Assembly: GCF_003334785.1 (NCBI RefSeq)
Contig: NZ_QOWV01000001.1
Direction: 5' to 3' (one strand)
Source of the DNA: Escherichia coli
GTDB lineage: Bacteria; Pseudomonadota; Gammaproteobacteria; Enterobacterales; Enterobacteriaceae
DNA length: 64,000 bases
Part shown: positions 22,675-47,045 of the stretch, in pieces
How positions within the stretch are numbered: the first letter of the stretch is position 1
Layout: the number at the start of each line of letters is the position of its first letter
The notes under the pieces: generated by a model
Told to the model about the DNA's origin: nothing
The model's database searches: none
What the model saw: only the letters and a program-made list of their open reading frames with translations
Position numbers and translations under genes: made by a program

Positions 22675-23505
22675 ATGTTTGTTCCGTTTCTCATTATGTT
22701 GCGCGAAGGACTTGAAGCCGCGCTGATTGTCAGTTTGATTGCCAGCTATCTTAAGCGTACCCAGCGAGGCCGATGGATTGGTGTGATGTGGATTGGCGTG
22801 TTGCTTGCCGCTGCGTTGTGCCTGGGCTTGGGTATCTTCATTAACGAAACCACCGGCGAATTTCCGCAAAAAGAACAGGAACTGTTTGAAGGTATCGTGG
22901 CGGTGATCGCCGTGGTGATCCTTACCTGGATGGTTTTCTGGATGCGCAAAGTGTCGCGCAACGTCAAAGTGCAACTGGAACAGGCAGTCGATAGCGCATT
23001 GCAGCGTGGAAATCATCATGGCTGGGCGCTGGTGATGATGGTCTTTTTTGCCGTTGCAAGGGAAGGGCTGGAGTCGGTCTTTTTCCTGCTGGCGGCATTT
23101 CAACAAGATGTCGGGATCTGGCCGCCGCTGGGTGCAATGCTCGGTCTTGCTACTGCCGTGGTGCTAGGCTTCCTGCTCTACTGGGGCGGTATTCGCCTCA
23201 ATCTTGGTGCATTTTTTAAATGGACCAGCCTGTTTATTCTCTTCGTCGCCGCAGGGCTGGCAGCTGGTGCCATTCGCGCATTTCATGAAGCCGGATTGTG
23301 GAACCACTTTCAGGAAATCGCCTTCGATATGAGTGCGGTGCTCTCAACTCACTCGCTGTTTGGCACGCTGATGGAAGGGATTTTTGGCTATCAGGAAGCG
23401 CCGAGCGTCAGCGAAGTCGCCGTCTGGTTTATTTATCTCATCCCGGCGCTGGTGGCATTTGCTCTGCCACCACGCGCAGGGGCGACAGCGTCTCGCTCCG
23501 CGTAA
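22675..23505 (+). CDS. efeU: Ferrous iron permease EfeU (FTR1 family), apparently intact
   Basis: Uninterrupted 276-codon frame from MFVPFLIMLREGLE; two REGLE motifs. Confidence 0.9.
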   Translation: MFVPFLIMLREGLEAALIVSLIASYLKRTQRGRWIGVMWIGVLLAAALCLGLGIFINETTGEFPQKEQELFEGIVAVIAVVILTWMVFWMRKVSRNVKVQLEQAVDSALQRGNHHGWALVMMVFFAVAREGLESVFFLLAAFQQDVGIWPPLGAMLGLATAVVLGFLLYWGGIRLNLGAFFKWTSLFILFVAAGLAAGAIRAFHEAGLWNHFQEIAFDMSAVLSTHSLFGTLMEGIFGYQEAPSVSEVAVWFIYLIPALVAFALPPRAGATASRSA

Positions 23506-23562
23506 CAAATACGACGCAAACTCTTGCTTAGTTACAACATACTTTAAAGGGATAGTCTCGTC

Positions 23563-26311: not shown

Positions 26312-27376
26312 ATGGTAACGTCCTGTACTGGACATGTTTTAGATAATCAACGCGCCACCACTCGCGGAGTTTTCTCCTCCGGTAGTCATCTCGTCACTTT
26401 GCATTTTCAACCTCATCCTTTCTTTTCATGTGTTACCGACGCCGTAAACGGTGCGCGTAGCCGTTTTTCGGCATTTTATCCAAAAGCAAACTATGGCTTA
26501 CAAGGAAGCCAACCCTCTGATGTTCGTGCGCATAATCGCGCTGCCAACGGCGCGTGTGATGAATACAAACAACTCAAGGTGCTCTCCATGGGAAGACAAA
26601 AAGCAGTGATCAAAGCTCGTCGCGAGGCAAAACGTGTGCTGAGACGGGATTCGCGCAGCCATAAGCAGCGTGAAGAAGAATCGGTCACCTCGCTTGTGCA
26701 GATGGGCGGCGTAGAAGCCATTGGTATGGCCCGCGACAGTCGCGATACTTCGCCCATCCTCGCGCGAAATGAAGCGCAATTGCACTATCTGAAGGCTATT
26801 GAGAGTAAGCAGCTGATATTCGCCACGGGCGAAGCCGGGTGCGGAAAAACCTGGATCAGCGCAGCAAAAGCGGCAGAGGCCCTGATACATAAGGATGTCG
26901 ACAGGATTATCGTCACCCGTCCAGTTCTGCAAGCCGATGAAGATCTTGGCTTCTTACCTGGAGATATCGCAGAAAAGTTTGCTCCCTATTTTCGCCCGGT
27001 CTACGACGTGCTGGTCCGGCGCTTAGGGGCTTCCTTTATGCAGTACTGCCTGCGACCGGAAATAGGGAAGGTGGAAATTGCGCCGTTCGCCTATATGCGT
27101 GGACGTACCTTTGAAAATGCAGTCGTCATTCTTGACGAGGCGCAGAATGTGACTGCCGCGCAAATGAAAATGTTTTTAACCCGCCTCGGGGAGAACGTGA
27201 CGGTTATCGTCAACGGTGATATCACGCAATGCGATTTGCCTCGCGGCGTGTGCTCCGGATTAAGTGACGCGCTGGAACGTTTCGAAGAAGATGAAATGGT
27301 TGGGATCGTCCGGTTCGGTAAAGAGGACTGCGTACGTTCGGCACTTTGCCAACGTACGCTGCATGCCTACAGTTAA
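26312..27376 (+). CDS. phoH: Phosphate-starvation-inducible ATPase PhoH
   Basis: 354 aa; Walker A GEAGCGKT. Confidence 0.92.
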   Translation: MVTSCTGHVLDNQRATTRGVFSSGSHLVTLHFQPHPFFSCVTDAVNGARSRFSAFYPKANYGLQGSQPSDVRAHNRAANGACDEYKQLKVLSMGRQKAVIKARREAKRVLRRDSRSHKQREEESVTSLVQMGGVEAIGMARDSRDTSPILARNEAQLHYLKAIESKQLIFATGEAGCGKTWISAAKAAEALIHKDVDRIIVTRPVLQADEDLGFLPGDIAEKFAPYFRPVYDVLVRRLGASFMQYCLRPEIGKVEIAPFAYMRGRTFENAVVILDEAQNVTAAQMKMFLTRLGENVTVIVNGDITQCDLPRGVCSGLSDALERFEEDEMVGIVRFGKEDCVRSALCQRTLHAYS

Positions 27377-27394
27377 GTGTGTTATCGGTGCAGA

Positions 27395-27420
27395 GCCCGG
27401 GCGAACCGGGCTTTGTTTTG
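27395..27420. terminator. Bidirectional terminator between phoH and pgaD
   Basis: gcccgggcgaaccgggc hairpin followed by T-run. Confidence 0.7.
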
Positions 27421-27425
27421 GGTGT

Positions 27426-27839
27426 TTATGCCCGGACTAGCGCTTTTTCTGAAACAACCATTTTTATTTGCCCCTGGCTGGTGAAGTGTACGCTCATCCT
27501 GTGGCTTTTTTGTAGTTGCTGATAGAGCTCATCAGGTATTGCTAAGCTCTCTGCATATTCTTGCGGCGTATATTGGTAGGCTGCATGATGCTGCTGTTTT
27601 TGAAAACGCAGCTTATTGTACAGCGCCCAGACAATTAACACGACGGCATTCGCCACTGCCAGCAAAAAATAGAACTGAAGTCGGCTTCTGGCCTCGCTTT
27701 GCCAGTAATAACCCGTCAGCAGATCCATGGCGAATAAGAATATGAACAACGCAAATAATGTCCACAAGATGGTTGTGGCAACATAATCAACCAGTAAACG
27801 TACTGGTGATTGTCGGGTCGTAATAATTAAATTGTTCAT
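27426..27839 (-). CDS. pgaD: PGA synthase subunit PgaD
   Basis: 137-aa membrane ORF. Confidence 0.9.
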
Positions 27840-27840
27840 A

Positions 27841-29166
27841 TTAACCTCTCAGAATCCCGCGATCGGGACTTACCCAACGGGCGCGTTGCTTTTTAGGCAT
27901 CAACATGACTCGTGTAAATGATACCAATGTCGTTGCCAGGCTCAGCATCCAGAAAATAACCGGGAACCAAATAATCCAGAAAAGCGATGAAGTCAGATTA
28001 TGCTCATAGCGATTCTCGATCATCAGGCTGACAATAAATTGCAGTAAACATAACGTACACAATAATATTCCGGCAGTATGTGTCGCAGCGATATGTGTCA
28101 ATTCAATATTTAACGGTACACCGGCAAGTTGGACTGCGTAAATAATGAAACCGACCAGGCAGGTGAAGGCCCATATTGTCGTCAGGCAGTATTCAAAAAA
28201 CAGCGGCCACATTCGAAAGTTTTCTTTGCGCCACAACCTTGTCATATTTTTGAGGAATACTTCTGCACCGCCCTGAGCCCAGCGCAGGCGCTGTTTCCAC
28301 AGCCCTTTTAACGTTTCAGGCATTAATATCCAGCACAGTGCCCGTGGCTCGTAAAAAATCGTCCACTGATTCAACTGCAGCTTCCAGCTAATATCAATAT
28401 CTTCGGTGATCATATCGTCACTCCAGTAACCCACTTCTGCCAGGGCGCTGCGACGAAATGCGGCAATAACACCGGAAACGGTAAATACGTTTCCATAGAT
28501 ACGCTGGGTTCGCTTGATCAAACCAATAATTGAGGAATACTCGCCAACCTGAATTTTACCCACCAGGGTAGAACGTGTTCGAATACGAGGATTACCGGTT
28601 ACGGCACCCACACGCGGGTTGTACAACATCGGTTCCACAATATATGCCGCCGCATCGCGGTCTAATAACGCATCGCCATCAATGCACACCAGATATTCAC
28701 TTTTCGCCGCGGCAGCTCCGGTTTTAAGCGCAATGGCTTTCCCCTGGTTTTGCGCCAGATGAATGACCCGCAAATGGGGAATTTGTGCAGCCATGCGATC
28801 CAGGATGGCACGGGTTTTATCTGTTGAACCGTCATTTACGGCAATAACTTCAATGTTCTCATAACGCTGTGCTAAAGCGGCGTGTATGGTTTCCTCAACG
28901 TTTTTCTCCTCATTAAAACAGGGAATGATAATGGAGATAGACGGATTATCTTTCAACTGGGGAGCTGGTGCGTTTTCTCCCCACGGCCAGTGGCGTTCAC
29001 GATAGACCCAGAAATAGACGCCGCCAACAATCCACATAATGGACATAAAAAACGGCCAGAAGAAAACGAACCTCATCATCAGTTCACCAGAGTGAAAGTA
29101 CGCTACGCATAGGGGTATGCATAACACCAGACATAATATAAAAAACGATACGATGCGATTAATCAT
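27841..29166 (-). CDS. pgaC: Poly-beta-1,6-N-acetylglucosamine synthase PgaC (GT2)
   Basis: 441 aa. Confidence 0.93.
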
Positions 29167-31177
29167 TTTTCGGATACCAGGCTGTTGAAAACTCAGGACG
29201 AATAAGGTCTATTTCAGGTTGGTTATGCAGAAAATTGTCGGGATAATAACCATAGTTTTTCATTCCATTCAGTTGTAATAGGCTCATCCAGTGAGCGAGT
29301 TGTTGCGAAGAAATAGCCTGATGCTGACCATTTTTCTGCCAGTTTTGTGCCTGTAATTCTAAAATAGATTTGTCTTTAGCCTGAGGGATGTTTTTAATTT
29401 GATTGGTCAATTGTATTAACCATTGGTCAGCCGATTTTTCTGCGACACCTTCCAGATAAGGCATAGCCATAATAGCGGTCCAGTCATAGCTTTTTAGGAA
29501 ATCAGCATAATTCTGTGCAAACCAGGCTTCACTTTCAGGTTGTATTACCGGAAGTGCAAAAATATTTCGTGCAGTTTTAATATGTGGACCGCGAATGGCT
29601 TTTACGCGCGCACTAAGTTCTAAAGTGAAGTCAGTTAACGCACGACTTTTAAAGCGGGCCCACTGTTTAAATTGCTCCGGGTTTTGTCGAATTTCGCTCA
29701 GACTCCCGCTAAAGCCTGCTTGCTGATAAGCCGTGATAGCCGGTGCACTGGCATCTTCATAATCTGAAAGCAAAGCATCATCGTGGAACAATATGCCATC
29801 AAAAGCAGCATGTCCGGCAAGATCTTCATATAACATGCCAACTTGTGCTCTGACTCTGTCATCGAAAGGAGAGAGACGGTGATATTGTTCAGGATGAATT
29901 TGTGCTTTTTTCTCCCCTGTTGGTAAGTATTTTACTCGCGTTAATGTGGGATCTAAATCCCAGCTTAATACCGGCATCCACGCATAGATGTTTACACCTG
30001 AGCGGGTACGTAATTGCCAGGCAACCCGACTAAAAATATCTGCTTTCATTGGTAGCAAACGATTTGGAAACCAGACCTCTTTGACCAGCCCATCACCATC
30101 GGGATCAGCAAATGCCTGCAAATACACGGTTGATATTTGCATATCTTTCACCCGCTGAATTAGCACATCAATATTGCGATCCATTTGCTGGAGGTTTTCG
30201 TCATAAACGTAATCAAGATCGATATGCATTATCCGTTGTGGTGATTTTTCCTGTACGGTAATAATTTGCTGGGCAAACTCTTTTAATGAGGGATTATTGG
30301 CGATTAATACCCGCGGAATGGAATCCAATTGCGACGCATTTGCCAAACCTGATTCAAGGGTGAAGAACATGTCATAACCGAGTTTTTTTAATTCCTCTAT
30401 CGCTATGCCATTCGCTTCGCCATAAGGCCAAACAAAAACGTGTGGATTTACCTCAACCTTTGTACGCAGGTATTCCGTCATTTTTACAGCATCCAGACGA
30501 ATTCTTTCCCGGTATTCTGCTGCGGTTTCATACCGTGCGTGGTCAGTAAAATATGCACGATTTACATATACAGGCAATAAGCTGCCGGTGGCATTAGCCT
30601 GAATACCGTAGTGAGAATTCCATGTATGAGAAGCGAGCTCAACGAGCCGGGAACGCGCAACTTCTCGCACTTGTTGCCACGTGGCAAAATATTCTCGATC
30701 GACCAACTCATCGCCAAATTTTACTTGTTTATCCGCTGGCGTATCGACCCAACTGCCGACGGGGGCCCATACAGCAGGCCACTGGAAGGCCTGAAGAATT
30801 GGGAAGACGCGGGTATAAAAACTCTGGTAGCCGTCATCAAAAGTCAGCACTACAGCTTTTTCCGGTAGCGGTTTTCCTCCTCGATGTGCTTCACGAATTT
30901 GAGCAATACTGACCGGTTGATAACCGTTCTCGCGCAGCCAGGCAAATTGTTCACGCAGTGCTGATGTCCGCACTGACATAAAACGCTGGTCGGCAGCTTC
31001 GTCTTCAACGTTATGCCATGAAATCGCTACAAAACCATTATGCGGCCACGGTTGCTCGGCGAGTAAAGATTCGCGATCCTGTGGCGGTATAAATGATGTT
31101 CTTGACTGGCTAATGCACGCGGTGAGCATAATTATACTCACCAGCATCAGGAGATATTTATTTCCATTACGTAACAT
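29159..31177 (-). CDS. pgaB: PGA N-deacetylase / export lipoprotein PgaB
   Basis: 672 aa, lipobox LTAC; overlaps pgaC by 8 bp. Confidence 0.93.
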
Positions 31178-31185
31178 ATTTATCC

Positions 31186-33609
31186 TTAAAATCTGAATGT
31201 CATATCGAATTCAACGTATAAGTTGTGTTCTCTGTCACCGTCATAAGGTCGTTTTTCCCAGCGTAGCGTTGCGCCAGCATCAATCACGTCATTCCAACTA
31301 ATGCGTTGCCCGTAGCCGAGTTGGGTGACGACATCCGTGCCATAATGTTTTTGCCAGGAGGCACCAACACCTGCGCTGAATATTTGCTCCCAGCTATTTT
31401 CATAGCTTCGCCATAACAAATGGCTTGCCTCAAATGCCGGAACAATATCGAACGTTTTTATAGGGTTGTAGTATGGGGTATCGTGTTCTGTATTTTGTTC
31501 GTAATACAGACTGGGTAGGAAATCGACAATCAAATATGGTGAAGACCAGATGCGTTCCTGACCCTCAAGTGAGACTTCATGACGCTGGTTACTGTCGGAA
31601 AAATCAGTGAAAGCCCAGGAGACACCGTACTTACGCCGCTCATTTTGATACCAGCGAACATAAGCCTGAGCACTGTTGCCTGTAACACCATTTTTCATTG
31701 CCCGTAATGGAACGCGGTGAGAGAGGCGTTCCAGTTGCGAACCAATACGCCAGTTATCATTAAAATCATACCAGCCAGACAGGCGCGCGCCGGGTTTATG
31801 CTCATGATTGAAAACGCGTTCAGCGTACTCTGCCTCGAGCCAGATATTACGTGACCGCCACTCAACACCCGCAAGCCAGTCGCGAACAATCCCTTTTCCT
31901 TCGCTAAATTGTCCATCGGCATAACCGAATCCAGCAAAACCGCGCCAGTTATCCTTCAGCGGTGGTGAATAAACGATGGTGGTTAAGTCGACATCATGTT
32001 TACCACTATCCGGGCCTTCGGCATCAATTCCTGTTGAGCCAGCGATACGAAGCTCTGCAAGATTATGTACATCAACCGCACGTTTTAATCGTACAACGCC
32101 GGGATCTTGCGGTTCACGTTCGACAACATCGTGCGTTAAGACAGCTGCCTGCTGCCATTCTTGTAACGTTAATGCTGTCCAGGCTTGTTCAACCTCCAGA
32201 TTAATATTACGTGGCTCGATCACTTCTGCTTTTTTTAATTCATTTTCTGCTGCACGAGGCCAACCGCGGGCTTGTAACACACTCGCGTAATCAATGCGCA
32301 GTCCCTGATTTCCTGGTGCGTTATAAGCAAGCTCTCTGGCTGTCATTTCAGCCTGAGGAAGATCATTACTATATTTTGCTACGGTTGAGAGAAACGAATG
32401 CCCCTGTAACCAGGTATCATTCGGGATGCTCGTAGGCGTGCCCATTAACCGAAGGAAAGGCGGCGAAGTATTAATGGTATGTTGGGTGACAGTTAGCGCG
32501 CCCGGATAATTTTCACTCTCCAGGTGGCTGTAAAAGAGATCCGCAAGTTCTTCATCGGATAAATCCGGGGCAATGGTCTCCTTGTGATAAAAGAGCTCGG
32601 TCATTATTGACTGTGCTTTTTTCGGCTGATGATCTTTGAGATAAGCCGATGCAACCCAATATTGCCCCCAGGGCGGAATAATTTGCCCCGTCTTTTTTAA
32701 TCGCTGATAGTGAGAAATAACGTCTTTATAACGATCGCGAGTTAATAACGCGCCAAGATGATCAACCTGAATACGCTGGTACTGGGCAGTGCGGTCTGGG
32801 TTATCGTGCCACAGAATTTCTAATGCAGCGTATTGGGCGAGGGCGCGATCGGCAATGGCATAACGTTCACTTTCACTGCGCGTAGGCATAAACGACAGTC
32901 TGACCAGTTCGGCATGAATATCAGCGCGAATATCTGGCGTTAAATTGGCATCGTCAATCGCGGCAGCAAGTTGATTATTACGTAATGCCTGCACGTATTC
33001 TGTGGGATATTGTTGCGTAGATGCATTTTCAGGTAATGACTCTGTCATCGCCCGTAATTCATCCTGATGACGCCCCGCCAGTTTATAGATATAGGCTTCT
33101 GCGAGTAAATTGGCTTTGTCCGGTGCTCCAGAGTTAAGCTGCTTAAGTTTAACCAGCGCAGTATCATAGTGACCAGCATCTGCCAGGGTTAAAATTTGTC
33201 CCCGTTGATAATCCTTATTTTGCGGCTCCAGAGAGAGCGCCTTTTGCCACAGTGTAAGCGAGTTTTGCCATTGTTGCAGGTTACGATAAGCGACGGCGAC
33301 AGCTGCATAACCACGCGCTGGTAATTGCTGATGACGGTAGCGGTTGTAAACGGTAATAACCTGTTTATCTTGCCCGGCCCATAAGGCAATCTGTAACCAG
33401 TCAGCAATTTGGTTATTGCTGAGTGCTGATTTTAGTGCAAACCATGACAAAGCTGGCTGAGTATTACCCTTGCGAGCTTCAATAATCAATGCATCATAGG
33501 CGTTATTAACAGCACTCTTCGCCGCGGGACTCGCTGCTAAAAATGCGGCAGTAAGAAGTTTCAAAGCCCATTTGGTTTTCGGGCACCTTTTTCTGCTACT
33601 TGAATACAT
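31186..33609 (-). CDS. pgaA: PGA outer-membrane export porin PgaA (TPR plus beta-barrel)
   Basis: 807 aa. Confidence 0.93.
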   Translation of the reverse strand: MYSSSRKRCPKTKWALKLLTAAFLAASPAAKSAVNNAYDALIIEARKGNTQPALSWFALKSALSNNQIADWLQIALWAGQDKQVITVYNRYRHQQLPARGYAAVAVAYRNLQQWQNSLTLWQKALSLEPQNKDYQRGQILTLADAGHYDTALVKLKQLNSGAPDKANLLAEAYIYKLAGRHQDELRAMTESLPENASTQQYPTEYVQALRNNQLAAAIDDANLTPDIRADIHAELVRLSFMPTRSESERYAIADRALAQYAALEILWHDNPDRTAQYQRIQVDHLGALLTRDRYKDVISHYQRLKKTGQIIPPWGQYWVASAYLKDHQPKKAQSIMTELFYHKETIAPDLSDEELADLFYSHLESENYPGALTVTQHTINTSPPFLRLMGTPTSIPNDTWLQGHSFLSTVAKYSNDLPQAEMTARELAYNAPGNQGLRIDYASVLQARGWPRAAENELKKAEVIEPRNINLEVEQAWTALTLQEWQQAAVLTHDVVEREPQDPGVVRLKRAVDVHNLAELRIAGSTGIDAEGPDSGKHDVDLTTIVYSPPLKDNWRGFAGFGYADGQFSEGKGIVRDWLAGVEWRSRNIWLEAEYAERVFNHEHKPGARLSGWYDFNDNWRIGSQLERLSHRVPLRAMKNGVTGNSAQAYVRWYQNERRKYGVSWAFTDFSDSNQRHEVSLEGQERIWSSPYLIVDFLPSLYYEQNTEHDTPYYNPIKTFDIVPAFEASHLLWRSYENSWEQIFSAGVGASWQKHYGTDVVTQLGYGQRISWNDVIDAGATLRWEKRPYDGDREHNLYVEFDMTFRF

Positions 33610-33850
33610 CCTGTATTACTCCATGTATTGCCAAAATCTCTCTCTGTATCTAATTACAGGTAACTGAAAAGAAAGATATTTTTGCACCTCATAATCCGTT
33701 ATTAAACGCGGAAGAGAGACGTGAATTGTTGATGATGAGAAGAAGAAATGATGAGCAGAGTGTCCATATAAAATCCTTTTCTCGCCCGAAAATCCATTCC
33801 AATGATGAGGATCTTCAGGAATACGGCATAAATCCCAATGCCTTTTTCAA
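33610..33850 (-). promoter_or_regulatory. pgaA long 5' leader with multiple GGA (CsrA-type) motifs
   Basis: AT-rich untranslated leader; GGA motifs including one overlapping the SD (aGGAgtaatacaGGATG). Confidence 0.65.
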
Positions 33851-34195
33851 AATAAATTAGGATTAAAATAATTAAATCAGTAAATTCCGATGCATGATTT
33901 CGGATTTTTCGAAAGTCCTGATGAAAGGCTGCGCTACGGCACTCACGGATTTAATTGTTATTCCTAATGTATCTATGAATTAATGTTTTATAAGGATTTT
34001 CTATAACCATTTATAAGTATTTTCAAGCCTGGCTTGTTGCAAACAATGTATAAAGCACTTAGGCAATAATAATTACATTCAGCAACTATCATCATCGGTA
34101 TTGTTTGTGGGCGGAATTTCATATTGACAACAGTACAGTTCTTATATCTATTAATAATAGAAAGGGATCTACAACCTACAGATTGGTGTAGCTTT

Positions 34196-35554
34196 ATGGA
34201 AAAAGACTATTTGAGAATGAGTAGTACTGTATTAGTGAGCTTATTGTTTGGGCTTGCTTTGGTTTTGGTGAATAGTTGGTTTAATCAGCCAGGCGTTGAG
34301 GAAGTTGTTCCACGATCAACCTATCTGATGGTAATGATTGCTTTATTTTTTATCGATACTGTTGCATTTATTTTTATGCAGTTGTATTTCATTTATGACC
34401 GTAGGCAATTTTCAAACTGTGTACTTAGTTTGGCTTTTCTGAGTTGTTTGATTTACTTTGTTATAACCGTCATTATCATTCAGCAAATTATTGAGGAGCG
34501 TTTGACAAGCAGTGTTGTCCAAAATGACATTGCAATCTATTATTTGTTTCGTCAGATGAGTTTGTGCATATTAATATTTCTGGCATTGGTGAATAAAGTT
34601 AGTGAAAACACAAAACAGCGCAATTTATTTTCCAAAAAAATGACTTTGTGCATAAGTTTGTTTTTTGTTTTTGGGGGGCCGATAGTTGCTCACATACTTT
34701 CTAGTCATTATGAGAGCTACAATTTACACATTGCCGAGTTAACCAATGAAAATGGTCAGGTGGTTTGGAAAGCCTCATATGTTACCATAATGATTTTCAT
34801 GTGGTTAACCTTGCTTTCGGTTAATCTATACTTTAATGGTTTACGCTATGATATCTGGAATGGAGTGACGGTGATTGCTTTTTGTGCCGTACTGTACAAT
34901 ATCTCTCTGTTATTTATGAGCAGGTATAGCGTGTCCACTTGGTATATTAGTCGCACTATTGAAGTAGTCAGTAAGTTAACCGTTATGGTAATATTTATGT
35001 GCCATATATTCAGTGCGCTACGAGTAACAAAGAACATTGCACATCGCGATCCCTTAACCAATATATTTAACAGAAATTATTTTTTTAATGAACTGACAGT
35101 TCAATCAGCATCAGCCCAAAAAACGCCTTATTGCGTCATGATTATGGATATCGACCACTTCAAAAAAGTCAACGACACCTGGGGGCATCCGGTTGGCGAT
35201 CAGGTGATAAAAACAGTGGTGAATATCATTGGGAAAAGCATACGACCAGATGACCTTTTAGCGCGCGTCGGCGGCGAAGAGTTTGGCGTCTTGCTGACGG
35301 ACATCGATACTGAACGTGCGAAAGCTTTAGCGGAAAGGATTCGGGAAAATGTTGAGCGTTTAACTGGCGATAATCCTGAATACGCTATACCACAAAAAGT
35401 GACGATTAGTATTGGCGCTGTTGTGACTCAGGAAAATGCGTTAAACCCAAATGAGATCTATCGACTGGCTGATAACGCACTTTACGAGGCGAAAGAGACC
35501 GGGCGTAATAAGGTGGTTGTGAGGGATGTGGTGAATTTTTGTGAGTCACCATAA
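34196..35554 (+). CDS. dgcT: Diguanylate cyclase DgcT (YcdT), membrane-anchored GGDEF
   Basis: 452 aa from MEKDYLRMSS; GGEEF motif. Confidence 0.92.
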   Translation: MEKDYLRMSSTVLVSLLFGLALVLVNSWFNQPGVEEVVPRSTYLMVMIALFFIDTVAFIFMQLYFIYDRRQFSNCVLSLAFLSCLIYFVITVIIIQQIIEERLTSSVVQNDIAIYYLFRQMSLCILIFLALVNKVSENTKQRNLFSKKMTLCISLFFVFGGPIVAHILSSHYESYNLHIAELTNENGQVVWKASYVTIMIFMWLTLLSVNLYFNGLRYDIWNGVTVIAFCAVLYNISLLFMSRYSVSTWYISRTIEVVSKLTVMVIFMCHIFSALRVTKNIAHRDPLTNIFNRNYFFNELTVQSASAQKTPYCVMIMDIDHFKKVNDTWGHPVGDQVIKTVVNIIGKSIRPDDLLARVGGEEFGVLLTDIDTERAKALAERIRENVERLTGDNPEYAIPQKVTISIGAVVTQENALNPNEIYRLADNALYEAKETGRNKVVVRDVVNFCESP

Positions 35555-35594
35555 AGCGGCATTTTGATCCTACCCACGTAATATGGACACAGGC

Positions 35595-36461
35595 CTAAGC
35601 GAGGTTCTTGTTTTCAAATTGTTCCGGACTGAGGCCGCCACACCAACTGTGCCGCCGCCACCGATTGTAATCACATTCGATATAATTAAACACCGTTGCC
35701 CGCATTATTTCCCGGCTGATAAAGTGTTCTCCATGGATACATTCCACTTTCAGCGAATGAAAGAAGCTTTCCACGCAGGCATTATCGTAGCAGCAACCTT
35801 TTGCGCTCATACTTCCACGCAGATTATGCCGCTTCAGTTGCGCCTGATAATCTGCTGAACAGTACTGGCCTCCACGGTCCGTGTGAACGATAACGTTCCG
35901 GGGCCTCTTACGCCGCCACAGCGCCATCTGCAGGGCATCGCAGGCCAGTTGCGCCGTCATGCGTGGCGACATTGACCAGCCAATAACGGCACGTGACCAC
36001 AGGTCAATGACCACTGCCAGATACAGCCAGCCTTCATCTGTACGTAAGTACGTGATGTCTCCTGCCCACTTCTGGTTCGGGCCACTGGCGTAAAAATCCT
36101 GCTCCAACAGATTTTCTGACACAGGCAGGCCGTGTGCGCGGTAGCTGACCGGGCTGAACTTCCGGGAGGCCTTTGCCCTCAGTCCCTGACGGCGCAGGCT
36201 TGCCGCCACGGTTTTTACGTTAAAGGGGTAACCCTGAGCACGCAGTTCATCCGTCAGGCGTGGGGCACCGTAACGCTGTTTTGACCGGGTAAAAGCCGCG
36301 AGGACAACGCTGTCGCAGTGTTGGCGGAACTGCTGACGCGTGCTTATCCTTGTCCGCCGCTGACACCACGTATACCAGCCGCTGCGGGCCACCCGGAGCA
36401 CGCGGCACATTGCTTTGATGCTGAACTCAGCCTGATGTTTTTCAATAAAGACATACTTCAT
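35595..36461 (-). CDS. insF: IS3 transposase OrfB (InsF)
   Basis: 288 aa, DDE integrase-like. Confidence 0.93.
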
Positions 36462-36757
36462 TTCAGGCGCTTCGCGAAGTATGTCGCGGCCTTTTGGAGG
36501 ATAGCCAGCTCTTCATCCCGTTCTGCCAGCTGGCGTTTGAGACGTGCAATCTCGGTAGACATCTCCAGTTCACGTTCAGAAGACGTCTGCTGATTTTGCT
36601 GTTTACTGCGCCAGTTGTAGAGTTGTGATTCATACAGGCTGAGTTCACGGGCTGCGGCAGTAACACCGATGCGTTCAGCAAGCTTCAGGGCTTCACTGCG
36701 AAATTCAGGCGAATGCTGTTTACGGGGTTTTTTACTGGTTGATACTGTTTTTGTCAT
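36458..36757 (-). CDS. insE: IS3 transposase OrfA (InsE)
   Basis: 99 aa from [18 protein letters not shown]; overlaps insF in -1 frame arrangement. Confidence 0.92.
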
Positions 36758-36822
36758 GTGAGTCACCTCTGACTGAGAGTTTACTCACTTAGCCGCGTGT
36801 CCACTATTGCTGGGTAAGATCA

Positions 36823-37166
36823 GTGCCTGGCACACGCGTTTGATGGAAGACGGCGTTCAGGCAATGCGCGATTATCTTGCCGGACTGGATATCGCTTCGC
36901 CAGAGCATCAGGTTCTGATGAACGTAACAGCAAAAAGCGAGGTCGCTCCGTCAATTATCAAAGAAAATCTCTCATTACACTTAACTCATACGGTGAAATG
37001 GACTGAATCTCTCGATACATTTCTGAATATGCCAACCCCGGTAGCTTTCCTTGAAATAAGTAATAAGCCCTATTTGGGGAATATGTTAAATGATTTTGCT
37101 GGCGTGGATCAGCAACGAGTTATGCATTGTCGTAAAGCATTTAGTGATGCAAAGGTATTCAAATGA
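36823..37166 (+). pseudogene. ymdE: ymdE, C-terminal fragment of a FabD-like malonyl-CoA:ACP transacylase, truncated by IS3
   Basis: ORF-track frame starts inside the IS3 terminal repeat; no plausible own start. Confidence 0.75.
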
Positions 37167-38149
37167 TTCCTGATTATTTAACTTTTATTCGCTTTCAGGA
37201 TAAACGAAATCTGATATACATTTATGCTATTGGACTTATTCTGATAGGCTTTTATTGGAAGAATGCAGGGTTTACTTTTCCATCAGAGGATATTGGTGTA
37301 GTTAGTGGGATTCTGGCTCTGGTGCTGTATAATTTTATTTTTGATCTCAAGGCGTACTGGGCTTATAAATGCGTCACGAAGAATATCGATTTTTCGTGGT
37401 TTAAGAAAAAGCAGAACCACAAAATAGAATTATTTCTTACACAACCTCTGGTGGCAGGATTTCTGTCGTTAATCATGTTGAGTGCAATGAGTTGGGGGCT
37501 ATACCAGCTTCTACCCTCGTTATATGCGCTGTTCCTGATTTCGTTACTTGGGCCGTTGGTCATCTTTCTGCTGTTTCGGATGATCCGCACCAGTTATGTC
37601 AAGCAGGTCGCTATTTCAGTAGCGAAAAAAGTAAAATATAAAAGTCTGACTCGCTATGTGCTGCTTTCGGTGTGCATCTCAACGGTTGTTAACCTGCTTA
37701 CTATCAGCCCGTTGCGTAACAGTGATTCTTTTGTGACAGAGGGGCAGTGGTTAACGTTTAAATCGATAATTGCATTGCTCATTCTTTGTGGCGTAGTGTT
37801 GGCGATTAATCTGTTTTTTCTGCGCTTCTCCAAGCGGTACGCTTTTCTGGGCAGGCTTTTTTTGCAGGAAATCGATCTGTTTTTCTCCAGTGAAAATGCG
37901 TTGTCGACCTTTTTTGCCAAGCCGCTTTGGCTTCGGTTATTCATATTGCTGGTTATTGAAGTGATGTGGATTACGCTGGTGTCGGTATTGGCAACGCTTG
38001 TAGAATGGCGGATTTGGTTTGAAGCCTATTTTTTACTCTGCTATGTACCGTGCTTAATTTACTATTTTTTCTATTGTCGATTCCTCTGGCATAACGATTT
38101 TATGATGGCATGTGACATGTATTTCCGTTGGGGGCATTTTAATAAGTGA
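37163..38149 (+). CDS. ycdU: Uncharacterised polytopic inner-membrane protein YcdU
   Basis: 328-aa AT-rich ORF with multiple hydrophobic segments. Confidence 0.85.
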
Positions 38150-38280
38150 GGAAGTGATAGGAAGTGACCAGATAATACATATATGTTCTGTACTCTCTTG
38201 CGCATTTTGATTGTTGACTGAGTAACCAGACAGTTGATGTGCACGATTTCCCCTCGCCCTAACAGACGTGGGCGGGGGCA

Positions 38281-38903
38281 CCCGGTGTGTGCAATATACG
38301 AAAAAAAAGCCCGTACTTTCGTACGAGCTCTTCTTTAAATATGGCGGTGAGGGGGGGATTGACTCGCTTCGCTCGCCCTGCGGGCAGCCCGCTCACTGCG
38401 TTCACGGTCTGTCCAACTGGCTGTCGCCAGTTGTCGAACCCCGGTCGGGGCTTCTCATCCCCCCGGTGTGTGCAATATACGAAAAAAAAGCCCGTACTTT
38501 CGTACGAGCTCTTCTTTAAATATGGCGGTGAGGGGGGGATTGACTCGCTTCGCTCGCCCTGCGGGCAGCCCGCTCACTGCGTTCACGGTCTGTCCAACTG
38601 GCTGTCGCCAGTTGTCGAACCCCGGTCGGGGCTTCTCATCCCCCCGGTGTGTGCAATATACGAAAAAAAAGCCCGTACTTTCGTACGAGCTCTTCTTTAA
38701 ATATGGCGGTGAGGGGGGGATTGACTCGCTTCGCTCGCCCTGCGGGCAGCCCGCTCACTGCGTTCACGGTCTGTCCAACTGGCTGTCGCCAGTTGTCGAA
38801 CCCCGGTCGGGGCTTCTCATCCCCCCGGTGTGTGCAATATACGAAAAAAAAGCCCGTACTTTCGTACGAGCTCTTCTTTAAATATGGCGGTGAGGGGGGG
38901 ATT
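38281..38903. repeat. tRNA-linked tandem repeat array: four 181-bp direct repeats, each carrying the serX terminator and the last 19 nt of tRNA-Ser
   Basis: Unit starts at about 38284, 38465, 38646, 38827 (period 181); shared tggcggtgagggggggatt core; near-identical copies. Confidence 0.9.
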
Positions 38904-38972
38904 CGAACCCCCGATACGTTGCCGTATACACACTTTCCAGGCGTGCTCCTTCAGCCACTCGGACACCTCACC
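38885..38972 (-). tRNA. serX: tRNA-Ser (88 nt, long variable arm)
   Basis: Acceptor 5' GGTGAGGTG / 3' CACCGCCA, T-arm GGTTCGAATCC; followed on minus strand by hairpin plus T-run. Confidence 0.9.
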
Positions 38973-42170: not shown

Positions 42171-43004
42171 TCAGGATTCCGGTGGAACCGACATATGGCG
42201 GTATTTCACCAGAATGTCATTCTGCCGTTCTGCTTTATTTTGCAAATCCCACAGACCACGGTCGATACCATCATTAATCAGGAAAATGACCCCTGTTTCG
42301 ATAGCCGACATCAGGCACAGCATAACAGGTTCGTTCGAGGTGTAACCCACTTCCCCTTCAAGCAAGCGCTGGTAGTCAATAAAGCGGAAAACCCCGGCCT
42401 GAACTTCATAGGAAAGTATCGTCTTACTGGTGTTCACCGAAGAAAGGATCTCGCCGGTACTCACATTGACGACGCGCAGGTTCACGGCAATCTGATCGAG
42501 CTGGTATTGCGTGTCGGCACCGATGCCAAAATATCTTGCCCCAACCCCGCCAGATTTGACGTTGCTTTCATAACCGATAATCGAACCTTCAACCATGATA
42601 TTTGCCGCCGTTAAAGATTGCAGCGGGATTCGGTTATTAATGGCAACCGTGCCGTTTTCTTGTGCCGCACGAATAATCTTGCGCTCGTTAAGCAGGTTTT
42701 GTAAGCCCTGGCGCTCCAGCGGTATAAACCAGCGAGAATCTTTCAGTGCCGTGACCAGCATTGCCGTGGCGCTTTGCGGAACAGCAGTGGAGAAGTTACT
42801 TGCCGGGTAGGGTTTAAATTGCCCGGTTTCGTCCTGAATGTTGTATACCGAAACAAAGATTTTACCCGTCGGCGCTGGCAGATGGGTCAAATCTTTGTAG
42901 CTCTGAGCACGAGGCATTAATGTCGGTCTGGCGGCTTCTTTAGGCGGGGCGGTTAAGCATCCGCTCAGTAACATGACGGCAACCAAAAGAAATAAGCGCT
43001 GCAT
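42171..43004 (-). CDS. csgG: Curli secretion channel lipoprotein CsgG
   Basis: 277 aa, lipobox LSGC. Confidence 0.95.
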   Translation of the reverse strand: MQRLFLLVAVMLLSGCLTAPPKEAARPTLMPRAQSYKDLTHLPAPTGKIFVSVYNIQDETGQFKPYPASNFSTAVPQSATAMLVTALKDSRWFIPLERQGLQNLLNERKIIRAAQENGTVAINNRIPLQSLTAANIMVEGSIIGYESNVKSGGVGARYFGIGADTQYQLDQIAVNLRVVNVSTGEILSSVNTSKTILSYEVQAGVFRFIDYQRLLEGEVGYTSNEPVMLCLMSAIETGVIFLINDGIDRGLWDLQNKAERQNDILVKYRHMSVPPES

Positions 43005-43030
43005 GATTATTTTCCTTATGAAGCTGGGGC

Positions 43031-43447
43031 TTAAAAATCGGTTGAGTTATTTTGTAAACCCGAAACCTGGATGGTCGAGGTTTGTCCGGTTTTACGATCT
43101 GTCACGTTCAACTGCAATTGACCATCGCGGTTGGCAATATCGACAATATAATCGTTGGTCACCATGCGGCCCGGTTTACCGGTATTAATATTCGACAGTA
43201 GCCCACCTAAAATTTGTGACTGGATGGCCTGAGTAAAGTTATCTAACGCTGAGGGTGTTTCAATACCAAAGTCATCGTTATAGCTCGGATCTTTATAAGA
43301 GTTTTGGGCCTGAGCGCTATTTAATAAAAAAGCGCCATTATTTGGGTTACCACCAAAGTTTGGATTACGGAACTGGAAAGTCATGGTTCCAGCCCAACTT
43401 AATGGCGAAATAAGCATGAGTAGAACTACTGCATGTTTGACACGCAT
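43031..43447 (-). CDS. csgF: Curli assembly component CsgF
   Basis: 138 aa. Confidence 0.93.
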
Positions 43448-43471
43448 TGCAGCCTCCGAACAATTTTTTAT

Positions 43472-43861
43472 TTAGAATTCATCATGCGCCAAATCGCCCG
43501 TACTTAATAACGCCTGATTTATCTGGCGACGATTTAGTGCTTCTTCAGTTTGAATCAGTGCAAAGACGACAGTTTTCTCGAAGTCTCTTTTCAACGGAAA
43601 TAAAAAAGTCTGGAAAATAACGTCCTGATTGACCGTTATAGTGATCCAGCTTCCCCATCGTGCACTGGGCCTTTCATTAATCGTTAAGTTACCCGTATAG
43701 TCACTTTCCCATTTATCACTAAAGGCTCGGTAAAAATCATGGCCAATAGATGAAACAGTATGGTCAGTTAGCAATCCCGGGACTTCTACCTCAACGGCGT
43801 GAAGATTCCCTGCGGCGAACAGAAATTCTGCCGCCACAATCCAGCGTAAATAACGTTTCAT
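43472..43861 (-). CDS. csgE: Curli secretion specificity factor CsgE
   Basis: 129 aa. Confidence 0.93.
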
Positions 43862-43865
43862 GGCT

Positions 43866-44516
<651 letters not shown>

Positions 44517-45270
44517 GATGAAACCCCGCTTTTTTTATTGATCGCACACCTGACAGCTGCCTCTAAAATAGAAGCACCAGAAGTACTGACAGATGTTGCA
44601 CTGCTGTGTGTAGTAATAAATCAGCCCTAAATGGGTAAAATATAAAACTAATGGATTACATCTGATTTCAATCTAGCCATTACAAATCTTAAATCAAGTG
44701 TTAAACATGTAACTAAATGTAACTCGTTATATTAAAATGTTAACCTTAAGGTTTTATTAAGTTTAGAAATGATAGAAAAGTTGTACATTTGGTTTTTATT
44801 GCACAATTTTAAAAAATCATACAAATGGTGATAACTTACTAATAATGCATATAAAAAATATTTCGGTGTAGTCCTTTCGTCATGTAAAACGTTCTTGTTT
44901 TTTCTCCACACCTCCGTGGACAATTTTTTACTGCAAAAAGACGAGGTTTGTCACGGCTTGTGCGCAAGACATATCGCAGCAATCAGCGACGGGCAAGAAG
45001 AATGACTGTCTGGTGCTTTTTGATAGCGGAAAGCGGAGATTTAAAAGAAAACAAAATATTTTTTTGCGTAGATAACAGCGTATTTACGTGGGTTTTAATA
45101 CTTTGGTATGAACTAAAAAAGAAAAATACAACGCGCGGGTGAGTTATTAAAAATATTTCCGCAGACATACTTTCCATCGTAACGCAGCGTTAACAAAATA
45201 CAGGTTGCGTTAACAACCAAGTTGAAATGATTTAATTTCTTAAATGTACGACCAGGTCCAGGGTGACAAC
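44517..45270. promoter_or_regulatory. csgD-csgB divergent intergenic control region
   Basis: 754-bp AT-rich non-coding DNA between divergent csgDEFG and csgBAC operons. Confidence 0.8.
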
Positions 45271-45726
45271 ATGAAAAACAAATTGTTATTTATGATGTTA
45301 ACAATACTGGGTGCGCCTGGGATTGCAGCCGCAGCAGGTTATGATTTAGCTAATTCAGAATATAACTTCGCGGTAAATGAATTGAGTAAGTCTTCATTTA
45401 ATCAGGCAGCCATAATTGGTCAAGCTGGGACTAATAATAGTGCTCAGTTACGGCAGGGAGGCTCAAAACTTTTGGCGGTTGTTGCGCAAGAAGGTAGTAG
45501 CAACCGGGCAAAGATTGACCAGACAGGAGATTATAACCTTGCATATATTGATCAGGCGGGCAGTGCCAACGATGCCAGTATTTCGCAAGGTGCTTATGGT
45601 AATACTGCGATGATTATCCAGAAAGGTTCTGGTAATAAAGCAAATATTACACAGTATGGTACTCAAAAAACGGCAATTGTAGTGCAGAGACAGTCGCAAA
45701 TGGCTATTCGCGTGACACAACGTTAA
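45271..45726 (+). CDS. csgB: Curli nucleator subunit CsgB
   Basis: 151 aa from MKNKLLFMMLT. Confidence 0.95.
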   Translation: MKNKLLFMMLTILGAPGIAAAAGYDLANSEYNFAVNELSKSSFNQAAIIGQAGTNNSAQLRQGGSKLLAVVAQEGSSNRAKIDQTGDYNLAYIDQAGSANDASISQGAYGNTAMIIQKGSGNKANITQYGTQKTAIVVQRQSQMAIRVTQR

Positions 45727-45766
45727 TTTCCATTCGACTTTTAAATCAATCCGATGGGGGTTTTAC

Positions 45767-46222
45767 ATGAAACTTTTAAAAGTAGCAGCAATTGCAGCAA
45801 TCGTATTCTCCGGTAGCGCTCTGGCAGGTGTTGTTCCTCAGTACGGCGGCGGCGGTAACCACGGTGGTGGCGGTAATAATAGCGGCCCAAATTCTGAGCT
45901 GAACATTTACCAGTACGGTGGCGGTAACTCTGCACTTGCTCTGCAAACTGATGCCCGTAACTCTGACTTGACTATTACCCAGCATGGCGGCGGTAATGGT
46001 GCAGATGTTGGTCAGGGCTCAGATGACAGCTCAATCGATCTGACCCAACGTGGCTTCGGTAACAGCGCTACTCTTGATCAGTGGAACGGCAAAAATTCTG
46101 AAATGACGGTTAAACAGTTCGGTGGTGGCAACGGTGCTGCAGTTGACCAGACTGCATCTAACTCCTCCGTCAACGTGACTCAGGTTGGCTTTGGTAACAA
46201 CGCGACCGCTCATCAGTACTAA
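45767..46222 (+). CDS. csgA: Major curlin subunit CsgA
   Basis: 151 aa with Gly/Asn/Gln-rich imperfect repeats. Confidence 0.95.
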   Translation: MKLLKVAAIAAIVFSGSALAGVVPQYGGGGNHGGGGNNSGPNSELNIYQYGGGNSALALQTDARNSDLTITQHGGGNGADVGQGSDDSSIDLTQRGFGNSATLDQWNGKNSEMTVKQFGGGNGAAVDQTASNSSVNVTQVGFGNNATAHQY

Positions 46223-46244
46223 TACATCATTTGTATTACAGAAA

Positions 46245-46268
46245 CAGGGCGCAAGCCCTGTTTTTTTT
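46245..46268 (+). terminator. Rho-independent terminator after csgA
   Basis: cagggcgcaagccctg plus T8. Confidence 0.75.
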
Positions 46269-46280
46269 CGGGAGAAGAAT

Positions 46281-47045
<765 letters not shown>

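Follow-up and report, generated by a model that had tools for sequence, protein, structure and literature searches.

Positions 27426-35554 of the Escherichia coli DNA studied here (contig NZ_QOWV01000001.1; the whole analysed stretch, 64,000 nucleotides long, is called the window) hold the E. coli K-12 pgaABCD operon for the exopolysaccharide poly-beta-1,6-N-acetylglucosamine (PGA, or poly-beta-1,6-GlcNAc) together with the divergent diguanylate cyclase gene dgcT (ycdT). The window is 99.97% identical to MG1655 (NC_000913.3, ~1,058,681-1,122,680), with 19 differences in 64 kb, and it is a K-12-like E. coli chromosome from a relative of K-12 and not MG1655 itself. In MG1655, pgaABCD (b1021-b1024) and dgcT/ycdT (b1025) have the same gene order, sizes, 586-bp spacer, 234-nt GGA-rich leader and IS3D insertion as in the window. 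Only 2 single-nucleotide differences from MG1655 fall inside the block, at 29263 (pgaB) and at 34219 (dgcT); the latter is an I8M change, residue 8 of DgcT being Met in the window and Ile in MG1655.

The pga operon, its leader and dgcT

The operon consists of four co-directional, tightly packed genes on the minus strand in the order PgaA-PgaB-PgaC-PgaD, with an 8-bp overlap between pgaB and pgaC. They are pgaA (31186-33609), encoding the outer-membrane export porin with tetratricopeptide repeats and a beta-barrel; pgaB (29159-31177), encoding the PGA N-deacetylase lipoprotein; pgaC (27841-29166), encoding the poly-beta-1,6-GlcNAc synthase, a family 2 glycosyltransferase; and pgaD (27426-27839), encoding the small inner-membrane partner of PgaC. 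Gene positions were taken from the open reading frame listing and from the RefSeq annotation of identical DNA, which also names pgaD. Each protein matched its own NCBIfam equivalog above the curated cut-off: NF007468 for PgaA (1455 bits, cut-off 1043), NF011177 for PgaB (1351.6 bits, cut-off 923), TIGR03937 PgaC_IcaA for PgaC (648 bits, cut-off 422) and NF011180 for PgaD (295.6 bits, cut-off 191). On the plus strand, dgcT runs from its annotated ATG at 34196 to 35554 and encodes a membrane diguanylate cyclase with Pfam MASE4 and GGDEF domains. An earlier note on this DNA, made from the letters alone, had described pgaABCD as lying head-to-head with a membrane GGDEF gene, and its coordinates and gene calls proved exact when set against open reading frames, annotation and domain matches. 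It had also placed the block between phoH and an IS3/serX segment; phoH (26312-27376) does form the left flank, and IS3D, the pseudogene ymdE', ycdU and serX follow dgcT. A full-length Rfam match to the Yersinia small RNA Ysr251 (189 bits) was found at 27178-27371 on the minus strand, antisense to the phoH 3' end and directly downstream of pgaD, and this match may merely mirror the conservation of phoH.

The biology of the locus is textbook, in that the operon, the CsrA/Rho leader, activation by cyclic di-GMP (c-di-GMP) and the divergent, CsrA-repressed dgcT have all been published. Poly-beta-1,6-GlcNAc production by this locus is attributed to Wang 2004 and Itoh 2008, as these are cited in PMC4287979 and PMC8461298. 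In the established scheme, UDP-N-acetylglucosamine is polymerised by PgaC acting with PgaD, and the polymer is then partly deacetylated by PgaB and exported by PgaA. Binding of c-di-GMP to PgaC and PgaD yields a stabilised, active synthase complex; the review PMC8461298 describes this binding and stabilisation and states that PgaD levels depend on the cyclase YdeH/DgcZ. The locus matters for E. coli biofilm biology, to which the comparisons reported below add modest points only.

The divergent control region between pgaA and dgcT (33610-34195), which serves both strands and contains the pgaA promoter as well as the dgcT promoter and leader, measures 586 bp and has 34.0% GC, among the lowest values of the window's 28 intergenic regions. 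This agrees with the roughly 590 bp of very AT-rich DNA that had been reported for it. A consensus promoter and terminator scan of the block returned counts equal to chance, and the known NhaR-dependent pgaA promoter was not picked up. Transcription of pgaABCD starts at about 33843 and gives the 234-nt untranslated pgaA leader (33610-33843, minus strand), a length that PMC4052769 quotes, together with six CsrA sites, from Wang 2005. Read in the sense of the pgaA mRNA, this leader and the start codon contain eight GGA motifs between -234 and +3, at -226, -191, -186, -167, -156, -88, -13 and -2 (first G at window positions 33835, 33800, 33795, 33776, 33765, 33697, 33622 and 33611, respectively). 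The last two fall within the translational-repression sites at 33607-33624 on the minus strand, the motif at -13 lying in the Shine-Dalgarno sequence AUGGAGU and that at -2 overlapping the start codon in CAGGAUG. The earlier claim of a GGA-rich leader, with one motif at the Shine-Dalgarno sequence and a composition consistent with CsrA control, is thus upheld by the count and by the published CsrA sites.

How much weight the count itself can bear is a separate matter. Of the 59 regions upstream of genes in the window this one has the most GGA motifs, and the count of eight lies in the top 0.8% of all 237-nt segments on both strands, but against dinucleotide-preserving shuffles of the leader the enrichment is modest (8 observed, 5.5 +/- 1.5 expected, P = 0.09). 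Because these statistics alone are only suggestive, the CsrA function of the leader rests on the published binding data. According to Figueroa-Bossi et al. 2014 (PMC4052769), CsrA bound to the left arm of a hairpin at +61..+107 exposes a rut site and so leads to Rho termination. In the window this attenuator hairpin corresponds to 33737-33783 (minus strand); its left arm carries two GGA CsrA sites, at +68 and +79, its right arm carries the C/U-rich rut site for Rho, and the hairpin was recovered in both the minimum-free-energy and the centroid fold. CsrA binding to the two GGA motifs of the left arm opens the hairpin, exposes rut and causes early Rho termination. The folding energy of the whole leader was no different from that of shuffled sequences (z = -0.07), and only the local +61..+107 hairpin is informative. 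In the predicted fold a 5' hairpin at +2..+19 presents GGGA in its loop, with a stem that is kept in diverged alleles, and other GGA sites fall within stems. Alleles with as little as 64-82% overall identity (the type-2 haplotype described below and the metagenome locus L013) share the GGA layout; the sites at the Shine-Dalgarno sequence and AUG are identical between K-12 and type-2, and the GGA at the AUG is conserved also in L013 and in a locus labelled Salmonella enterica (L019).

DgcT is made up of an N-terminal MASE4 domain, the integral-membrane domain that also characterises DgcX and CdgI, at residues 41-274 (PF17158, 7.7e-68, 234/239 model positions) and a GGDEF domain at residues 282-439 (PF00990, 8.1e-51). 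Its A-site, GGEEF, is intact, and the surrounding RVGGEEFGV is invariant in three aligned alleles. An I-site of the form RxxD (R350-P-D-D353) lies five residues upstream of the A-site, the intervening residues being LLARV. The mechanical open reading frame begins at a TTG at 34124, upstream of the annotated ATG. DgcT has been described as an active diguanylate cyclase, and its gene as transcribed divergently from pga and repressed by CsrA (PMC5635695 and PMC4287979 for both).

Two alternative states between phoH and serX

Our E. coli sample comprised 5,426 complete genomes, phoH being present in 5,419 of them. The block had matches in 4,412/5,426 genomes, and a 650-bp probe spanning the phoH-pgaD junction was covered in 4,374 of the 5,419 genomes with phoH (~81%). 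In the genomes sampled from those that failed the junction probe, homology ended at a single point, 27419, just past the phoH terminator hairpin (27389-27419, plus strand), which forms the left edge of the variable cassette. These genomes carry an alternative cassette of 1.24 kb with one DUF2726 gene (L017 8344-9578; L018), followed by the same RtT-like repeats and serX. A probe for the DUF2726 cassette was covered in 1,045 genomes (19%), and since 4,374 and 1,045 add up to 5,419, the pga-dgcT and DUF2726 states are mutually exclusive alternatives. An empty site, sought in the E. coli genomes with a single query joining phoH to serX-ghrA, was found in 1 genome only, where it is an IS1 deletion; the pga-less state is therefore a replacement and not a gap. 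The variable unit extends from 27420 to ~38280 and in K-12 contains pgaDCBA, dgcT, IS3, ymdE' and ycdU, the breakpoints common to both states being 27419 and the start of the RtT-like repeats. The idea of an island at this place is already in print: the stretch pgaD-ycdU, with efeB/phoH on one side and ghrA on the other, has been said to look like a genome island (Goldstone 2016, PMC4951805), and some strains have been described that lack both pga and ycdT (PMC5635171). What we add is modest, namely a clean two-state polymorphism at phoH-serX, with 81% of genomes carrying pga-dgcT and 19% DUF2726.

The K-12 version of the interval contains further genes on its serX side. IS3D (35565-36822, minus strand) begins 10 bp beyond the stop codon of dgcT. 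It is flanked by TTT and GTG and thus lacks a 3-bp target duplication, and the neighbouring ymdE has lost its 5' part, which suggests that a deletion associated with IS3, and not a simple insertion, took place. The 5'-truncated pseudogene ymdE' (36864-37166) and ycdU together occupy 36864-38149 on the plus strand at 40% GC. The right edge of both cassette types is formed by 3.4 tandem 181-bp RtT-like units directly 3' of serX (38281-38903, minus strand); each unit carries the first 19 nt of the serX 3' end, and the Rfam RtT model scores 46.3 bits against a threshold of 45. The array has the same architecture as tyrT/rtT, and its copy number varies from 1 to 4 across strains. The gene serX itself, for tRNA-Ser(GGA), lies at 38885-38972 on the minus strand, with its 3' end facing the block and the RtT-like repeats and ycdU in between.

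A second, more divergent form of the block, which we call type-2, occupies the same phoH...serX position in strain NT1N25. It is 82% identical to K-12 in nucleotides and 75% in DgcT amino acids, and lacks ymdE, ycdU and IS3. Type-2 shares 98.7-99.4% identity with the syntenic locus in a divergent Escherichia genome (L010), labelled E. coli but assigned its own species in GTDB, in which the ghrA flank is only ~90% identical to K-12 and the order is phoH-pgaDCBA-dgcT-RtT-serX. This genome was found by a contig scan with a DgcT alignment. The scan relied on just two highly specific peptides from the membrane domain; it yielded a single true relative and was too narrow to map the linkage across species. 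That the 82%-identical copy might be a paralogue was considered and rejected, because NT1N25 and the divergent Escherichia genome both have it at the phoH-serX position that the block occupies in K-12. Because type-2 and the divergent lineage have pga-dgcT at phoH-serX without ymdE-ycdU, pga-dgcT predates ymdE-ycdU there.

Divergence between the haplotypes is uneven along the block. Nucleotide identity to the L008 and L010 loci is 72-80% across pgaB, most of pgaA and dgcT (29500-32750 and 33500-35554), and 88-95% across pgaC, pgaD, the 5' end of pgaA and the flanks; in a sliding comparison of K-12 with type-2, identity falls from ~90% to ~75% at ~29500 and drops again after 33500. Synonymous divergence (dS) between K-12 and the divergent lineage is correspondingly 0.84-1.33 for pgaA, pgaB and dgcT and 0.14-0.57 for pgaC, pgaD and the flanking genes. 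The ratio of nonsynonymous to synonymous divergence (dN/dS) is 0.06-0.15 throughout the block. As judged from these alignments, the block is a mosaic of functional alleles rather than a locus in decay.

Type-2 is also found away from phoH. In SL124 (L005 8944-17450), C3728 and EA7 it lies within a composite island at ileX, between nfeF and ileX (L006, L007; also L009), with genes for type I restriction, Ag43, CbtA/YeeU, YfjI and integrase as neighbours. One end of the copy at ileX is marked by an IS1 inserted at the stop codon of phoH; the other lies 14 nt inside the 3' end of serX and is followed by an integrase gene. Bounded as it is by the phoH stop and the serX 3' end, the island copy indicates that the whole phoH-serX interval hitch-hiked with an element that had integrated at serX. 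EA7 combines DUF2726 at the native site with a pga-dgcT copy on the island, and strain 14EC033 has both block types. Carriage on plasmids was considered and rejected: the 11 'plasmid' matches and 7 plasmid places in E. coli genomes involve records of 0.16-4.9 Mb, ten of them non-mobilizable, that are 97-100% identical to the chromosome. We took them as mislabelled or misassembled pieces of chromosome and as no evidence of plasmid mobility.

These observations bear on the suggestion in the earlier note that the block may share the horizontal origin of the IS3/serX island. In its strongest form this would mean that everything from pgaD through dgcT, IS3 and ymdE to ycdU was brought in together at serX, as one island and by one horizontal event. 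The serX 3' end does face the block, the whole 27420-38280 interval is swapped as a unit for the DUF2726 cassette in 1,045 genomes, pga-dgcT and ycdU are both AT-rich, Goldstone 2016 described pgaD-ycdU as an apparent genome island (PMC4951805), and integrase-bearing elements do enter serX in other strains. Those at serX (strain 95-3322) and at ileX (SL124) resemble the pga-dgcT block in being next to a tRNA 3' end, AT-rich and variably present. The block itself accordingly has three of the usual features of a tRNA island, namely its place at a tRNA 3' end, atypical GC and variable presence (4,374-4,412/5,426), and lacks an integrase and a far direct repeat. Between phoH and serX in the window the sole recombinase is the IS3 transposase, and no integrase was found. 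With up to 3 mismatches, the 19-nt serX 3' end occurs only at 38342, 38523, 38704 and 38885, that is, within the tandem repeats, with no copy at the phoH boundary; boundary direct repeats around the block were looked for and none was found. Unlike the tRNA islands, then, the block has neither integrase nor attachment (att) repeats, and on the ileX island the type-2 copy was carried along as a flank. Furthermore, in the sister lineage and in type-2 strains pga-dgcT directly abuts RtT-serX, and IS3 is a multicopy element with 55% GC that lacks a target duplication, the full K-12 arrangement including IS3 being present in 2,294/5,426 genomes, under half. We consider a single island to be very improbable. 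What stands of the earlier suggestion is a probably acquired, exchangeable cassette (accessory, sharp-edged, alternating with DUF2726, with pga at other loci elsewhere); a common origin with IS3/serX is not supported, in view of the missing integrase and repeat and of type-2 without ymdE, ycdU and IS3.

Linkage of pga with MASE4 cyclases in other genera

The earlier note had proposed to follow the phylogenetic distribution of the pga-dgcT linkage. Full-length relatives of DgcT fall away quickly in identity, from 99% to 64% to <=46%, whereas PgaC stays at a level 64-70% identity to the E. coli protein all the way from Citrobacter to Pseudomonas. A cyclase 64% identical to DgcT is on a metagenome contig (L013) where it is divergent from pgaA, pga being present, with a CadC-like gene downstream. 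In Enterobacter (L022; PgaC 71%, cyclase 44%) the cyclase gene is co-directional and downstream of pgaD, between fabI and sapF; a genome related to this one (L014) has the cyclase (44%) alone in the same fabI-sapF region, with no pga. On another metagenome contig (L020; PgaC 72%, cyclase 43%) the cyclase gene is convergent and downstream of pgaD, among phage-like genes. Citrobacter werkmanii (L021; PgaC 66%) has pga at an unrelated locus with no cyclase within 10 kb. Salmonella is generally described as without pga; one genome labelled Salmonella enterica (L019, CP191473.1) nonetheless has an Escherichia-like pgaABCD (PgaC 87%), with no GGDEF neighbour, between gabP/csiR and a dcm-like methylase gene. 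The Enterobacter locus links the same five protein families as K-12, and the 234 nt preceding its pgaA, although unrelated in appearance to the K-12 leader, contain 10 GGA motifs, whereas the cyclase gene is co-directional instead of divergent and the site is fabI-sapF instead of phoH-serX. Thus the linkage of pga with a MASE4 cyclase does recur, in three layouts, but among the loci compared the adjacency to phoH together with the divergent layout is confined to the Escherichia lineage.

A useful comparison is Yersinia, in which hmsHFRS is a homologous four-gene system for synthesis and export of poly-N-acetylglucosamine that needs c-di-GMP from a membrane GGDEF protein (HmsT); hmsT, the gene for this cyclase, is not known to lie adjacent to the operon. 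In Escherichia, by contrast, the cyclase gene is divergent from the operon and 586 bp away. HmsT is cited beside ycdT in PMC4951805. Given the divergent co-location of dgcT and pga, their shared control by CsrA, their co-presence and co-absence in E. coli and the recurrent pga/MASE4-GGDEF linkage in other genera, DgcT may supply c-di-GMP specifically to PgaCD. The recurrence of the linkage in rearranged form offers a genomic argument that PGA is what DgcT is intended for, even though the cyclase is silent in K-12 grown in the laboratory.

Base composition and origin of the cassette

The block has 43.9% GC as compared with 49.6% for the window, dgcT being at 38.6% and pgaA-D at 44-47%; the flanking genes phoH, efeB and ghrA are at 52.2%, 53.8% and 51.2%. 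Relative to 38 'core' genes of the window, GC z-scores of the block genes run from -1.1 to -3.2 and those for GC at third codon positions (GC3) from -0.7 to -2.4. The block is thus AT-rich as a whole, as had been claimed, and its composition differs from that of the flanking core genes (43.9% versus 51-54%), contrary to the outcome that the earlier note had named as refuting. Of the two composition checks proposed in that note, GC skew showed nothing beyond gene orientation and is uninformative on origin; in codon usage the pooled Karlin B deviation of the block, 0.298, is high, yet it is exceeded by the csg gene sets.

The curli locus csgDEFG/csgBAC (42171-46613) lies in the same neighbourhood and, like pga-dgcT, consists of divergent biofilm operons with AT-rich genes and a long control region of ~34% GC. 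It differs in that it has no cyclase gene in cis and was present, beside ghrA-ycdZ, at all of the E. coli loci looked at, the window included, with no presence/absence dimorphism among these. An IS1 interrupts csgD in strain 2017.17.01CC (L017 14825-16252), which lacks pga, so that both matrix systems of the neighbourhood are affected there. Since the csg genes are as atypical and deviate more in codon usage, composition alone cannot decide ancestry. Indeed, AT-richness might simply reflect function, silenced and weakly expressed biofilm or envelope genes with long regulatory regions being AT-rich in E. coli whatever their ancestry. Several csg genes are at 42-43% GC, their intergenic region is at 34.6% and their codon-usage deviation is above that of the pga block; in addition, the many Ile, Phe, Leu and Asn residues in the membrane domain of DgcT lower GC at first and second codon positions (GC1 and GC2). 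We are inclined to doubt that function is the explanation, as it leaves unexplained the sharp-edged presence/absence polymorphism and the differing chromosomal positions in other genera.

Salmonella enterica provides an outgroup for the site. Its gene order is putA-putP-phoH-DUF2726 (L023, L025), and between Salmonella and E. coli phoH is 82% identical in nucleotides and 94% in protein, the DUF2726 gene 79% and 74%, which is ordinary interspecies divergence; we take the E. coli DUF2726 cassette to be orthologous to this arrangement. Because Salmonella shares phoH-DUF2726 at this ordinary divergence, the DUF2726 state looks ancestral and pga-dgcT derived, and pga-dgcT is most likely the acquired state at phoH-serX. 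The acquisition would be old, since the block is already syntenic in the divergent Escherichia lineage, and would not have involved an integrase island at serX. The pair ymdE-ycdU, and then IS3, would have been added later on the K-12-type haplotype. For the phoH-serX locus, a Salmonella-like ancestral state calls into question the narrative that 'Salmonella lost pga'.

The opposite view is that inheritance was purely vertical: pgaABCD, with dgcT, would have stood beside phoH in the enterobacterial ancestor, and Salmonella and the 19% of E. coli without pga would represent independent losses, following the model of Echeverz et al. 2017. Consistent with it are the published Pga trees, which are roughly congruent with phoH and species trees (PMC5464674), the synteny of the locus in a second Escherichia lineage, and the low dN/dS, which indicates long-term purifying selection. 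However, the same DUF2726 gene stands in the same place after phoH in Salmonella and in pga-less E. coli, so that vertical descent needs two identical replacements. Nor does it sit well with (i) the presence of pga at non-homologous loci in Enterobacter, Citrobacter and one Salmonella genome, (ii) PgaC identities to E. coli that show no fall-off with taxonomic distance and (iii) the atypical composition of the block. We regard purely vertical inheritance as unlikely.

We therefore favor, with good though not complete confidence, an account in which this is the K-12 pga-dgcT locus, governed by the published CsrA and c-di-GMP mechanism and acquired long ago as a cassette that alternates with DUF2726. 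Several points weigh against this account. The direction of the pga/DUF2726 replacement rests on one outgroup genus, Salmonella, and vertical inheritance with loss in Salmonella has been argued from the rough congruence of the trees (Echeverz et al. 2017, PMC5464674). The cross-genus sample is small, with one locus per genus plus two contigs from metagenomes. An AT-rich composition is no proof of foreign origin, as the window's csg genes are equally atypical, and the raised dS of pgaA, pgaB and dgcT may partly reflect low codon bias. With regard to the cyclase, DgcT was below detection in K-12 under laboratory conditions and contributed nothing to the c-di-GMP pool of the cell (PMC5635695). 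The cyclase shown to control PgaD levels is YdeH/DgcZ (PMC8461298), so that a dedicated link between DgcT and Pga is hypothetical.

A more far-reaching version of the favored account is also conceivable, in which pgaABCD and the MASE4 cyclase form a self-contained, transferable 'sensor-to-matrix' cassette, the cyclase being a dedicated local source of c-di-GMP that senses a membrane signal. Such a cassette would have been acquired at phoH-serX in place of the ancestral DUF2726, Salmonella never having had pga there, and it would still be exchanged today: the allele of the divergent lineage would have entered E. coli by homologous replacement at the native locus, and hitch-hiking to the ileX island would have restored pga-dgcT to strains with DUF2726 at the native site. 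We put this forward tentatively, as a speculation that is more probably wrong than right.

Finally, outside the block, the window has an extra G at 22780 relative to MG1655. As a result efeU (~22676-23506) is an intact open reading frame of 276 amino acids in the window, whereas MG1655 efeU is a frameshifted pseudogene.

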